Source: Podarcis melisellensis (lineage: Eukaryota). Taken from it: 64,000 nt of DNA. This document shows positions 55,849-63,667 of this stretch, piece after piece; the first letter of the stretch is position 1, and every line of letters starts with the position of its first letter. The notes beneath the pieces were generated by a model. That model saw only the letters and a list, made by a program, of their open reading frames with translations, searched no databases and was not told the DNA's origin. The stretch is taken from NCBI GenBank assembly GCA_964234715.1, contig OZ174285.1; one strand, given 5' to 3'. The translations under genes and the position numbers were made by a program.

Positions 55849-56384
55849 GTATGTTTTATTGCCATTGTTGCTTGCAATCATTGTGCTTGGAGAGGGACTA
55901 AGACAAAATGGAGCATTTGCCCTACTTCATGCCAACTTCTTAAACTTCTGCTCCCAGAAATATTGAATTCTGTTATCAGAATAATGGATCCCTAATTTTT
56001 GCCAATGAAAGTTGTTTGCTTAGCTGGCATTCTCCAGAAGCAACTAGGAACTGCATTTCTTCAACAGCAACTGCACTTTGTTCATATGAAAAAGTCCTTC
56101 AGCTGTGCAATAGATTTTTAGCAGCACTTTAGACTACTTTTCCTTGGCTGAGGCTTTATCCTCTTGCTGACTGTAGAGAAGGACTAGCCAGTGTGAGAAA
56201 TGCCAAACTTTTCATTGCACATCTTTGCTGTCTGGATCTATTTTCCAAAACTTCGTGCTTTCCGCATAAAAATGTACACTATGATATATGTAGAGAATGA
56301 CAGAATGCACACTGTCCTCAGGGGGGTCTAGGGTAGTGTGTTGCACGTGAAGGGCTCTCCCTGCATTAGGCTTGTTTTCTTTGA

Positions 56385-56678
<294 letters not shown>

Positions 56679-57074
56679 TGAAGTAGGTGGACTGGCAATG
56701 AGCTATTTTCTAAATAGCTCATCCGGCAATGCATAGCTGCACTGCCATCCTGTAATAGGAGTGCTTCTACCCTCTTCACGGCTGTAGGAAGGCTGGAATA
56801 AGAGCCTTGTAGTACTCCTTGAGGGTGCGGAAGACGGAAAGAAAAGAACACCTCCCTTCCCAGTCTCCTTAAAACTCCACATTGTGTTATATAGTGCTAA
56901 TTAACTGTGGTAGGAGGTTGGCTGCCAACCCCAAACATGAGCATTTTATTGTATAGCAGGTGCAGGGACCTCAGGCCTGGGGGCTGAAGGAAGCCCTCCA
57001 GGCCTCTCTGGCTCTGAGCACTCTCCCCTGGGCCACATGCCTCACTAGCCCTACTTCTCATACCCCTTGAGGGT

Positions 57075-57290
57075 AATAACAATAAAAATTTATTATTTAT
57101 ACCCTGTCCATCTGGCTGGGTTTTCCCAGCCACTCTGGACGGCTCCCAACAGAATATTAAAAACAAGATGAAACATCAAACATCAAAAACTTCCCTAAAC
57201 AGGGCTGCCTTCAGATGTCTTCTAAAAGCCAGATAGTTGTTTATTTCCTAGACATCTGATGGGAGGGCGTTCCACAGGGCGGGCGCCAAT
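57075..57290 (-). mobile_element. LINE (L2-like) 3' end
   Basis: Reverse complement of 24420-24490 plus further upstream sequence; AT-rich tail. Confidence 0.65.
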
Positions 57291-57861
57291 GTAGGTCTTT
57301 CAGGACCAATCTAGCTGCTGCATTCTATTAGTTGGAATGTGCCTTTGAACTCGGCTAGTGCTTCTTGCTTGCCTGGAAGGAGGATGGAGAGTGGTCTGAA
57401 AGTGCATCTAGAAACTAGCCTTATAATTTGGTAAAAAATGCACCCGTTACTCGACCCATTTTTCTCTCTGGGTCCTCTCACAACTGGAATGGACACCCCC
57501 CCCCCCGGATTCCCAGAAAGGAATGTTAGCCCACTTTTGCTATATTCATTCAGGGAGCAGGGTGGATTCTGCACAGTGGGGAAGCAGAAATTTATTTTTT
57601 CTTTCTCCTCCATCCTAAAACCTTCCAATATACAGTGGGAGGGCCTTAACCTCATAATGGCCACCTGCTCCTTCCCTCCAGGATACTGTAAATTTGTTAC
57701 AGACTCAAGGAAGCCAGTTCTCTCTCACCTTACTTTCCTTTAATGTATGAATTCATGATTTAGTCAAGGTACGGTACAAGCAACTTGTGATGAACCTCCG
57801 GGTATTTCGGACTAGTCCCTTTTTGTGTGAAAACATTTAGCTTCTTATTTGCATTCTTTAG

Positions 57862-58003
57862 GTAATAAGTCCTGAGAAATATGAAATAAAGTGTGCAGGA
57901 CAAGAAGCATCCATCATTTTGAATTCCTGTGTGGAACCTAAAATGCAAGTGACCATCACGTTGACATCACCAGTGATTCGGGAAGAGAACATGAGGGATG
58001 GAG
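57862..58003 (+). CDS. ZFR: ZFR exon 15 ([11 protein letters not shown]...IREENMRDG), DZF
   Basis: 142 nt; donor G|gttcgg is non-consensus but required by protein homology. Confidence 0.92.
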
Positions 58004-61000
58004 GTTCGGAATCTGTTAAAAAATGCTCTATTTTAATTGGCTTAATCATTCTGTCATAAACGGCATTAAATCCTGGAAGGCAACATGCTGGCATGTGATA
58101 CACATTTAATGGCAATTCATAAATCAAGCAGTCTTGTGTGTTTTTCCAAAACCTATTTTAGACTTATTCACTGCAACCAACAACCTCAGATTTCTGGAAA
58201 ATGTAGGTGTTTTTTTAAAATGTGCAAACCTGTCTTTCTTTGGAAAAAGTAAATGTTTATGACTCAAATACCTGCAAGTTGATAATCAAGAAGGCTTCCT
58301 CCCTAAGGGAGAAACTACACCAGGAAATTATATTGTATGTTTGAAACTGGATCAGTCTTAGCCTTCATTTATATGGCACTTAGTTAATTTTTAAGTTCAA
58401 AGTGATTCTGGCTTTGCTTGGAGCAAGATGTGTATTTTTTTCCAGTTTTTTGAGGTTGGTTTCTGGACTGGAGTATAAGACAAAGAGCTCCTAATATTGA
58501 GGTTGGAGTGTCTTAATTAAGCAGTACATATGCAGTGTGTTTATAGTAAAGAGTGATAGCTGAGTTCAGTTAAGTAGACCTTGGAACTTTAAAACTCCAT
58601 ATGTATTTATGACCTGTGCGATCCTACTGGTGCCAGCAGTGTTGCTTTAGGGTCTCTTCTATAATTCTTTGAAAGCTACAAATGTTTTTAAGCCAGCAAG
58701 CATGATAATTTAATGTCTGCAATATGTTGGCTCTATTTAGAGGTCAGATAAAATGAACTTTGTTTTCTTTTGTCTTGTGTTGGTCAAAATAAACTTTTTG
58801 CAGGCACAGTGGTATTGCTGGCTAAGAATATATAAGCATAGGAAGTAAGGCTCTGTTTAAGTTCTTGTTAGCATAGAGTGAGTGTGCTTGTGTACATACA
58901 GCTGTGGAATGAACTCTTAGCATTATGCTTTCAATATTTGAACAATTGCTTATGTTATTTTTTTAAAGTATAACTATTCTAGAAGCAAGCTTTCTCAAAA
59001 AGCTTTTTTTTAAAAAACAAAGCTTGACTATTAATGTACATAGGATTTTTCTTCCTGGTTTTTAAAACACTACTTAAATTTACACAATACCATTGGCTTT
59101 TAAATTCTGAAATAATCACAGATAACTTTGCTTGATTGCCCTGAGTTCAGTTTATTTATTCATCTTTACCAAACAACAGAAAGAACGTCAGACATCACAA
59201 TTGGTTATATGCAACCTGTAAAGATTTGGCAAAAAAAGGAAAACGTGGATAGAAAATTGCACAACTATTTTGAACACGATCTTGATGCCATTTCACTGTG
59301 CCGATTAATTTCATGATCTGACTTCAAAAGAAAATAAAGCTCCAATTTTTTGTCTGACCCAAACATTAATTAGAGTTGCCATTCTAAGTTTGATAATACT
59401 AAGTTTGATAATATTAATAGAGGAAAGCAAAGCTTTTAAAATTTTTGAATCATTTCTTCAAGACACTGAGCAGCTTAAAATGAATATGTGAAAAAGTTTA
59501 CCTCTGAAATATGTGGTTTAACTGCAAATTGTAGTAAACAAGACTTTTATAAAGATCATTGTTTATGTGCTGCAAAAAAAGGTATACTCTTAACTGCAGC
59601 TCTTAATGCTCGGTGTCTTAACTTGGTTGATGGAATCTAGCTGGCTTTTGGGAGTTGAATTCAGGTGGCAAGGAAGGCTTTGCTGGAAGAACCCAATTTT
59701 AAGTAGATGTATTTCATTTGCTGGTTGAATAACATCTTATGTAATCCTATTCAGTTGCAAACTGAAGGGGAAGGAGAAGGTAAACACAAAACTGTTAACC
59801 ATGTAGGATTTTGTTTCTTTACAGTTTTGTGCACTTAACAGTTAAATTTACAGAATTTACTCCGGATATAAAGATTCTGTAACCCATGCTGCGGAATGTG
59901 TTTCTTCAGCAAAGTGTATATGTTTATGTTTTTTATCCTTAGCTTATTAGCCCCGGTCCAAAGCCTTCTAGCAGAGACAATTGAATCCTGTCAGGGATTG
60001 CTGCCAAGACATCGGAAGGATTTTTGACCAAGGTTTTCTAAAGCTCAATGTCACACCTGCCATATTTTTGAGGGGGTTTGGTTGCATAGTCCTAGCATTT
60101 ACTGTTACTTTTGTGTTTTGTCTTTTTTTTCCTTCTTGTCTTTGTCTCTCTCTTCTCTAGAATTAAGCAGTGTTCACACTAGCTTTGAAACAGTTGACTG
60201 GGTAATACTTAATTCACACCTGGAATTGAAAGCGCATGTCATACCTGTTAACTTTTTAATAACGAAATAGTGTGGACACAGCATGTCTTATTGAAGATTA
60301 ACCCCTTATTTTTAGAATACAAGAAAATTAATCTGCACTTTAAAAACAAAGCTATGGTTGAAGCTAAGAGGGCACACTTGAATTCTGATTCATTTAATTT
60401 TAGGACCAGTTTTTAAGGGGTTAATCCACTTGGAGTCTTTATGCAAAAATCCACATATAGGAAAGTCTTTTAAATGGATATCCAGCCCAGATAAGCTCTC
60501 AATTTCTATAGCTGCTTCAGCATCTTCTGATGGCTTCAAGGTTGATTCGCAATGGGTACACTCTATCTCCCACTGAGGTCAATGACAAATCTCAAGCTTA
60601 ATAGAGCTGGATCACCCATAATCTTGCTTGTCAATTGTATATGGGTCTCTGGATCATTGCATCATTATTTTTTTTAAAAAGTAGTGCTTCGAAATACAAG
60701 TGTTTTAATACCATTATTTAAATAATAATAATCCAGGACTTCAGTGATAATTAAACTAAGTCATTAACGCTATTTTCTTGTAAGTATTTTTTAGGAGAGT
60801 ATAAATAGTTTTTATGAAACAAAGCTTGCTCCCACAAGCTATATAAAGTAGAATAAACTCTCCCTATTTTGTCAGAGCTATGAACTGAACTTTAAATGTG
60901 TCAATTATCAAATCGTACTGCTGACTTTGGCCTCAGTTGACTCTTTTCCCTTAAATTTTCTCTCCTTTCACTTGATACATCTATAATCCTAATGTCTTCT

Positions 61001-62460
61001 TTCATTTGCTTTGAAATCTCTCACTAACTAATGTGACTCATTTTTCACTTCACTGTATCTGTATAGCCCATAAAATTCACCATGTTAAAATGGCATAAAT
61101 CCCATTGCTAAAATGTTTAAGACTTGTATATCCCACTGGTAAAATATTAATATAAGCATAAACAAATGAATTTCGTATGAGAGGTGTACAATTCAGGCAT
61201 AGCATACTAAATGAAATTGAAATAATTCTGTGCACAGCGGAAGTGTCATTTATATAAATTCTGGCTTGCATTCTTTGACCTGTTTCTCTTCATTGATGGC
61301 TGACCTTCAAGCCAAATCTGTTAATATCTTGGTTTACGTTCTTTTCCTAGTTCGTGTGTTCCATGAGTCTTTGATTTGCTGTTATGAGTATGTTTGCTTA
61401 AATTAGACTACATTTTAATGTCCCATCTGCTGAATAATCCAGGCAAAGTCTGGTCGCATTCAACATTTATTTTAACAGCAATTTTGTATTGGCAGAAAAT
61501 TTAAAAATATCTAGAAATACTCTTGGCTGCTCAGCAGGCAGTTACAACATATTTAGGAACAGTAGTTATAATTGACACAAAATCCTTGTTTGGAAAATAA
61601 GAATTTACCAGATGCAGTGTTGTTCTTTCTATCACACTGCTGTTGCTTCTGCTTTTCCTGGTTTTGATTTTTCCTCTACTTCCTTCTCTTAAGACCCCTC
61701 TTTCTTATTTTCTTCTGGTATACCCCTGGATGAAATTGGGATGGATATACACAGCATGCACCTTGGTGCAATAGGAGCCTAGAGGGTTTAAGAAATACAA
61801 ACATGTACAGGTGCTCTTGACTTGAATTTTACAAAGTATTTCACATCCCTTCAGACTCCATAAAACCAAAAAATCTGGATTGTTTCTATAAGTATAGTTT
61901 TACCTTACCTTAATGGGAGGTATCCTAGTACATCATGGGTCTTGACTGCTCAGGAAGAATTTTGACCCATTAACTAGGACTAAGTCTGAGGTAGCATGCG
62001 GCCATTTTAAGTTGTCCCAACAAACACAGGGCACAATCCACTGGGAAGTTGTTCTGCACAAGCACCATTAAAATGGATGGGAACTTAACAGAAATGCCCA
62101 TTCAGTTCAGTGGGGCCCACACAGAAGAACTTCACAATAGATTTTGCTCACAGTTTGTTGTAACTTTTGCTTCATTCAAGTGGATTTTTGTGTTCCTTCT
62201 GTCTTGTGTTTCCTGTGCTGGTGCACTGTGTCCAACCATTCTTCCTTCAACATTTTAATTTTAGGGGAAATTTATTTTTCCAGAGGATTTTTTTTCACAA
62301 ATAGATGGACATAAAAAAAATAAGATTGAGAGCTAACCTTGTATTATGCTCTTGATTACCTTTTGTATTGGGCTCAATGACCACATACAGATTAAGGGAT
62401 TACTACTGCTGAATACAAATACATTGGAGATAGGGATTGCAATATAAATGGCACGTGTGA

Positions 62461-62672
62461 NNNNNNNNNNNNNNNNNNNNNNNNNNNNNNNNNNNNNNNN
62501 NNNNNNNNNNNNNNNNNNNNNNNNNNNNNNNNNNNNNNNNNNNNNNNNNNNNNNNNNNNNNNNNNNNNNNNNNNNNNNNNNNNNNNNNNNNNNNNNNNNN
62601 NNNNNNNNNNNNNNNNNNNNNNNNNNNNNNNNNNNNNNNNNNNNNNNNNNNNNNNNNNNNNNNNNNNNNNNN
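62461..62672. other. Assembly gap (212 N), probably hiding ZFR exon 16
   Basis: The [33 protein letters not shown]-type exon is not visible between exons 15 and 17, and their phases (1 vs 0) require an intervening exon. Confidence 0.8.
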
Positions 62673-63454
62673 TAGCCTTATGAGAGAGAGTAGTTCAGTT
62701 GTTCGGTTGGATGTTAAACTATGCGGAAAAACTAAATGTTGCCCATAGTAAATATGTGTATATATATCTATTATGTGTACTCATATATAAAATTAAATGA
62801 CATGGGAGAAATTAATTCATCTTGGAAGATCTGTATAGAAGAACCGCTTTATGCCGTTCTTGCCAATTTGACGTCAACTTGTTTTTCTGGCCACTGAGAT
62901 AGCGAAGTTGAAAGCTTGACTCGCTTGGGGAAATCGTATGTTTTGTATTGGTAATGTGTTCCATAAGGCTGCAGAGTAACTTTGCTTTAAATAACAGAAT
63001 GTGTGTTTAAAGCTTTGTGTGTTAGATGTAAGACTTTTACCCTTTTTTTCTTGAAGCTTATTAAGTGTAGGGAATGAAAGGTGAGAAACTATTTGGTTTG
63101 GTGACTTTGCACTCCAGCAAAGGTACGACAGAGAAACCAAACAGATTCCCATAGCCTTTCAGTCTCTCTACTTGTTAGCTCTTTACTCCTGTATTTCTAT
63201 TATAGGAAGATAATTGTATTTTCTGTATAAATGAACCAAAGTGTGCAGGAATTCAAGGGATATTAGTCTTGTATAACCTGTGCACCTTGACTTCTCAATT
63301 ACTAACCTTGGCATAAAATGCTTCTGTAAATGGCAGCTCCTGGAATGTTTCATGTGGCTTGTTTCTTTTCTGTGTCTGAGCTTCCATTGAACAGTGGTGT
63401 TTTAGCTTCTCTAAGAGGCCTATATTCTATTGGTGCTGGGATTGATTAACTTGA

Positions 63455-63667
<213 letters not shown>

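Follow-up and report, generated by a model that had tools for sequence, protein, structure and literature searches.

The intron between exons 15 and 16 of ZFR in the lizard Podarcis melisellensis holds a conserved element. Positions 59929-60454 on balance probably form a structure-gated cryptic cassette that acts as a decoy or as a poison exon and tunes unproductive ZFR splicing around exon 16. In this cassette, splice sites and complementarity are conserved, and inclusion would bring an early stop. The window is the whole analysed stretch of 64,000 nucleotides. For its positions 59740-60430, the first-pass annotation had proposed a structured poison-exon module with three exon-like units between four hairpins; the conserved element is real, but narrower than and displaced from that description.

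ZFR is encoded on the plus strand, and exon 15 shares 96% identity with squamate ZFR proteins. The gene and the intron had been named correctly; the intron number 15 follows from a backward count of exons that starts at the last one, exon 20. The phase 1 end of exon 15 was also borne out, and the junction of exons 14 and 15 (56588>57862) is covered by 51 RNA reads. Exon 16 is missing from the readable lizard sequence; the bird-like orthologue puts it at a stretch of N. Exons 18-20 are located past the end of the window. The stretch with the candidate module is the single match in its own 1.57-Gb genome, within the repeat caveat of the search method.

57862..58003, plus strand: ZFR exon 15, ending in phase 1, with a weak donor.
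62461..62672, plus strand: N stretch; the aligned exon 16 of the bird locus would fall here.
63473..63568, plus strand: ZFR exon 17; joined directly to exon 15, it gives one glycine codon and then a stop.

A total of 319 ZFR proteins was examined, and the end of exon 15 is visible in 283. The weak exon 15 donor lies at 58004-58012; 18 of the 283 database proteins, several from Logan contigs, read through into intron 15. Exon 18 (L002 2062-2070) appears to have a GC donor, that is, a GC-AG intron. Intron 15 also contains a tandem duplication at 59384-59417 (15-nt unit, 2.3 copies).

The comparison locus is an 8-kb sequence (L005) from a motif scan of metagenome contigs and runs from ZFR exon 14 to 17. 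It was treated as bird-like because its exon-15 read-through resembles bird database proteins, and is called bird below. Block 59929-60314 aligns to it with 83% identity over 399 nt (E 3e-112). Bins within 59900-60199 reach 86-94% identity, in comparison to 41-65% per 100 nt in the background intron (60500-62099) and 56% for shuffled sequence. The first-pass annotation had named missing conservation, together with missing junction reads, as grounds for refutation; judged from this alignment, conservation is present. It is unevenly distributed: units 2 and 3 and part of the structure are strongly kept in both species, but only the lizard has unit 1 and hairpins 1 and 3. The spacer between units 2 and 3 is identical at 111 of 128 positions.

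Further conserved sequences surround the cassette. Block 58627-58769 (81%) takes part in a shared 12-bp helix, 58742-53/59348-59. Intron 16 (62833-63472) has about 80% bird identity over most of its length and contains partner arms for intron-15 and exon-15 sequences. Its hairpin 63233-63293 resembles Rfam mir-1898 (34.9 bits, E 0.0012, under the gathering score of 78) and is kept in the bird-like locus, with a fold z of -8.0 there and -2.6 in lizard; a conserved structural element is more likely than a chance match. Just upstream of exon 16, the bird-like locus has in-frame acceptors 21-22 codons ahead, which are used by Diceros and Phrynosoma gene models. The intronic peptide preceding exon 16 is nearly identical in rhinoceros, lizard and bird.

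The three exon-like units are present with AG and GT ends where they had been placed, and a fourth lies upstream of them. Splice sites were scored with splice-site frequency tables and ranked among the 252 AG and 237 GT of the readable intron 15.

59600..59664, plus strand: fourth exon-like unit; the bird retains its AG and GT, and each species has an early stop.
59755..59779, plus strand: unit 1 and hairpin 59750-59766; confined to lizard and probably without function.
59943..60032, plus strand: unit 2, conserved cryptic exon with a fair acceptor (rank 7 of 252) and a weak donor (96 of 237).
60161..60201, plus strand: unit 3, conserved cryptic exon of 41 nt with the strongest acceptor of the intron (1 of 252) and a middling donor (36 of 237).

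Each unit was said to disrupt the frame after exon 15. Units 1 and 3 do so, but unit 2 keeps the frame because it is 90 nt long, and has an early stop, at the third codon after lizard exon 15. The bird unit 2 is 89 nt long and therefore has its stop at a different codon. Unit 3 is open and shifts the frame, with a stop 6 nt into exon 16 in the bird sequence. Stops caused by inclusion of unit 2 or 3 are located well upstream of later junctions, since exons 17-20 follow. Lizard and bird share 82 of 90 nucleotides in unit 2 and 38 of 41 in unit 3, and both units keep acceptor and donor. Unit 1 (25 nt) stops at the fourth codon after exon 15; its acceptor ranks 33 of 252 and its donor 2 of 237. 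Only 12 of its 25 nucleotides are identical in bird, where the acceptor AG is lost and the aligned donor scores -4.5. Unit 1 and hairpins 1 and 3 were rejected as functional parts because they are not conserved in bird. A reading as terminal exon was also considered: hexamer lists, compared by eye, gave no obvious poly(A) signal conserved between the species.

Database gene models use some of these sites. A partial Merops model joins exon 15 to the unit 2 acceptor, with 25 matching residues out of 30 as judged by eye. Both ends of unit 3 serve as splice sites in a Phrynosoma model, which is hypothetical. A narwhal model joins exon 15 to the acceptor at 59600; with 6 of 10 residues matching, this is the best among the 252 acceptors and the only sign of mammalian conservation here. 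A profile of the unit-3 frame matched 3 Logan clusters, and only P0010 matched in a targeted protein search for unit 3. The search for full-length proteins with the unit-2 peptide, a weak one, gave 3 candidates, none of which scored.

RNA evidence came from four raw-read runs of a related species, aligned over 56300-59980 only, with a junction listing threshold of 3 reads. The exon 14-15 junction was covered by 5, 6, 15 and 25 reads per run. Within this range and at this low depth, none of the four runs listed a joint of exon 15 to unit 1 or 2 or had a depth peak there; the deepest run excludes just an inclusion of unit 1 or 2 above about 23%. In two runs with few reads, intron 15 reached a sense depth equal to 5.6% and 7.0% of that of exon 14; repeat-free bins of intron 14 had 2.1% and 0.5% in the same two runs, again from few reads. 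The intron-15 depth gives a faint hint of slow intron removal. In intron 14, a high-copy, SINE-like repeat (57040-57310) attracts most aligned reads on both strands.

Units 2 and 3 could be plain poison exons, included in some tissue or on NMD block, with ZFR promoting their inclusion to limit its own level. AG, GT and stops are conserved, the Merops and Phrynosoma models hit the unit-2 acceptor and both unit-3 ends exactly, and conserved poison exons of the cryptic kind occur frequently and are often missing from annotations (PMC11632617). However, both models are predictions, one partial and one hypothetical, the donors are weak or paired, and the reads covering 56300-59980 gave no junction for units 1 and 2. 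The full-text literature contained no report of ZFR autoregulation or of an intron-15 exon, and supplementary tables may contain one; units 2 and 3 were likewise not found in print, and the supplements of PMC11632617 and of the DZF paper (bioRxiv 10.1101/2022.06.15.495552) or file 13 of PMC11188260 could list them. Plain poison exons are an unlikely account of the element.

Local structure differs from what had been drawn. The four hairpins listed in the first-pass annotation (59750-59766, 59785-59831, 59848-59882 and 60296-60426) all fold as drawn when excised from lizard sequence, with z of -2.2 to -3.0 in windows that were hand-picked and cut to size. Hairpins 1 and 3, however, are absent in bird, where their equivalents have z of 0.0 and +0.5 and do not form. 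Hairpin 2 as drawn is weak in bird (z -1.4).

59790..59843, plus strand: shared 9-bp stem 59790-98/59835-43, a shifted form of hairpin 2.
60166..60283, plus strand: predicted unit-3 hairpin, enclosing unit 3 and its donor.
60296..60426, plus strand: 13-bp closing stem of hairpin 4; arms 26/26 identical in bird, loop 64/105.

The shifted stem of hairpin 2 has two pair-keeping changes between lizard and bird. The strongest shared local fold in the predictions is the unit-3 hairpin, which is absent from the original list. Unit 3 and its donor are predicted to pair with 60242-60279 at -34 and -37 kcal in the two species, in the stems 60170-81/60268-79, 60192-98/60247-53 and 60200-04/60242-46. The arms of the 12-bp helix are identical in bird and have a pair probability of 1.0 in both species; the loop is identical at 16 of 34 positions. 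Its z values in the two species are -3.5/-3.9 when the window is fitted to it and -2.6/-6.3 when windows are scanned blindly. All three substitutions of unit 3 are located in an internal loop, where the peptides of other species vary as well; these are invariant at the helices. The pyrimidine tract of unit 3 is predicted to pair with unit 2 in each species, in different registers. A switch of the unit-3 hairpin to 62226-62234 is not favoured, with a probability of 0 for pairing 60273-81/62226-34 against the hairpin.

Stability in the wider region is less specific. Only 3 of the 173 windows of the blind scan had z <= -2 in both species, all within the module, and about 1.5 of these 3 are expected by chance. 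Other windows of the lizard intron fold equally well or better, with z down to -4.9, and the whole 691 nt of the module have a fold z of -2.25. The stem count of the whole module, 6 versus a shuffle mean of 2.0, is not clearly above shuffles, 2 of 40 of which reach 6; for 59740-59900 alone, it is above them (4 versus a mean of 0.5). No known RNA family was detected within the module, all Rfam matches being weak and outside, and no long perfect inverted repeats were found.

The block may be conserved for another reason, as a DNA enhancer, a protein-binding platform or an editing duplex, with an incidental look of splice sites. Intron 16 and several other blocks are likewise 80-89% conserved, the main stems lack covariation, and ZFR is an ultraconserved-element gene (bioRxiv 10.1101/2022.06.15.495552). 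Yet identity is high at acceptors, donors and both stem arms and falls in the loops, and the best of 252 acceptors is located exactly at unit 3. Such an origin is improbable, marginally more so than plain poison exons.

The predicted pairing extends across exon 16, in long-range helices that had been missed like the unit-3 hairpin.

57997..58006, plus strand: helix arm at the exon-15 donor, predicted to pair with 63379-63388 in intron 16; shared with bird.
58073..58081, plus strand: conserved arm, complementary to unit 2 (59963-59971).
60088..60099, plus strand: 5' arm of a predicted 12-bp helix with 63432-63443, which would loop out unit 3 and exon 16.
60441..60454, plus strand: 5' arm of a predicted 14-bp helix with 62180-62193, spanning 1.7 kb toward exon 16.
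62175..62283, plus strand: conserved block (89%) upstream of exon 16, carrying the 3' arm 62180-62193.

Between exons 15 and 17, 10 helices of at least 9 bp and <= -12 kcal are paired in both species, versus a mean of 2.7 and a maximum of 8 in 100 block shuffles. At <= -14 kcal, 7 are shared, versus a mean of 0.8 and a maximum of 3. In reversed-run nulls, the counts were 4 and 3 for <= -12 and 4 and 0 for <= -14, so a third to a half of the shared long-range helices may be due to chance. The pairing at the exon-15 donor (-11.4 kcal) is inside the chance range. Arms 58073-81 and 59672-81 are predicted to compete for the start of unit 2. In bird, helix 60088-99/63432-43 has two changes from G.U to Watson-Crick pairs. 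Most helix arms do not differ between lizard and bird, and covariation is almost absent; the main helices, being invariant, therefore give no proof of pairing by compensatory changes. Complementary regions are conserved at and around the exon-like units, as seen in two species with little covariation. Block 62175-62283 also has a pyrimidine tract and an AG near 62263, a possible additional acceptor upstream of exon 16.

The unproductive event known from this region skips exon 16 and includes none of the units. The skip of the 98-nt human exon is annotated as ES_NMD and is the sole ZFR row in the supplement of Lim et al. (2020, PMC7347940). In GTEx, its median is 17.7%; it is classed as an 'essential exon', is the sole ZFR event and is tied to lower ZFR expression (z -23; Mironov et al. 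2023, PMC10123112). ZFR proteins agree with this event: 17 of 283, from frog, anole, birds, marsupials and placentals including primates, end with one extra glycine. The direct join of exons 15 and 17 in lizard yields the same ending, and these proteins probably derive from the exon-16 skip. An inclusion event in intron 15 was absent from the human and mouse tables searched, of which both human ones (PMC7347940, PMC10123112) rest on annotated events. The mouse neuron cycloheximide table contains two other Zfr events and no row for intron 15 (supplement of PMC11188260). In Upf2-knockout liver, Zfr is among the genes with a raised PTC junction, the junction not being specified in the available part of the source. 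ZFR had no row among those listed of the ZFR-knockdown MISO table and was absent from the supplement of Pervouchine (2019). ZFR is also regulated via an alternative start site (PMC5861047).

Alternatively, unit 3 and exon 16 might be mutually exclusive. Use of unit 3 would then keep the reading frame and put 14 residues in place of 33 in the DZF domain of ZFR. The two lengths, 41 and 98 nt, each leave a remainder of 2 on division by 3, unit 3 continues into exon 17 without a stop in either species, and ZFR governs mutually exclusive splicing (bioRxiv 10.1101/2022.06.15.495552). The rough chance of a phase match with an open frame is, however, 1 in 7, and two of the three lizard-bird changes in unit 3 are non-synonymous. 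Such a protein was found in 0 of the 283 examined and not at the top of the targeted search, and the competing pairing with 62226-34 has no probability against the hairpin. An exclusive pair is very improbable.

For the favoured structure-gated cassette, the following mechanism is proposed. The acceptor of unit 3, the strongest of the intron, would compete with the weak acceptor of exon 16 (bird score -3.3). We infer that the stems pair in cells; with its body and donor folded away, unit 3 would therefore seldom be defined as an exon and act mostly as a decoy, which would slow the removal of intron 15. Helix 60441/62193 would bring the cassette beside exon 16, and helix 60088/63443 would loop unit 3 and exon 16 out toward exon 17. 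In this way, the long-range helices may shift the share of the exon-16-skipped NMD isoform. If the hairpin were opened, unit 3, or else unit 2, would be available for inclusion as a poison exon.

The reader of these structures is likely a dsRNA-binding protein, and less probably than not ZFR-ILF2 itself. Conserved complementary regions are enriched in the sequences that flank target exons of ZFR, which binds dsRNA (bioRxiv 10.1101/2022.06.15.495552). Autoregulation would fit this preference for dsRNA-rich introns. In the same study, loss of ZFR raises NMD isoforms of other splicing factors. This is the opposite sign to a simple negative loop and counts against the cassette reading. The full proposal, in which ZFR-ILF2 binds the unit-3 hairpin and the long-range helices and sets the choice between exon 16, skip and unit 3, is doubtful. 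If true, unit 3 would be a poison exon with exon 16 and in-frame without it. The element would then be a feedback switch that senses dsRNA independently of sequence and dates back at least to the lizard-bird split, and the exon-16 NMD event, seen from frog to human, would gain its missing cis-element. ZFR steers the splicing of many ultraconserved NMD exons and of mutually exclusive exons, as well as the interferon response. At this site, about a fifth (median) of the human ZFR message lacks exon 16, a share for which the literature gave no controlling element. The cassette supplies exact stems and splice sites to mutate or to block with antisense oligonucleotides. Setting of its own level by a dsRNA-binding protein without sequence preference becomes directly testable.

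Related arrangements are known. The human exon-16 skip (PMC7347940, PMC10123112) concerns the same gene and intron pair, and the helices predicted here flank exon 16. In contrast to the units, it needs no added exon, and its listed table rows name no cis-element or regulator. Introns bound by ZFR have an exon amid several conserved duplex-forming regions, as in ZFR introns 15 and 16; the available text describes no action of ZFR on its own pre-mRNA, and 'autoregulat' and 'poison' have 0 occurrences in it (bioRxiv 10.1101/2022.06.15.495552). Decoys in SF3B1 intron 4, also in OGT and ARGLU1, are several short, highly conserved cryptic cassettes (PMC6097662, whose main text, as available, does not name ZFR). 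SF3B1-type decoys and ZFR share a splicing regulator and an intron of more than 1 kb, and in normal cells the decoys are seldom included. For SF3B1, intron retention and binding of U2AF have been demonstrated, whereas ZFR has a faint hint of intron-15 signal and a decoy predicted to be locked in structure. BRD2 exon 3b and the cryptic exon 5b of BRD3 are likewise conserved cryptic exons with an early stop and pairing predicted to suppress them (PMC10789245). In BRD2 and BRD3, the looped-out exon lies between arms in the flanking introns, and both its inclusion and the rescue have been measured. In ZFR, in contrast, the exon body and donor form one arm, two units are involved and no inclusion was seen. 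By analogy, the ZFR cassette is proposed to work like BRD3 exon 5b or the SF3B1 decoys.
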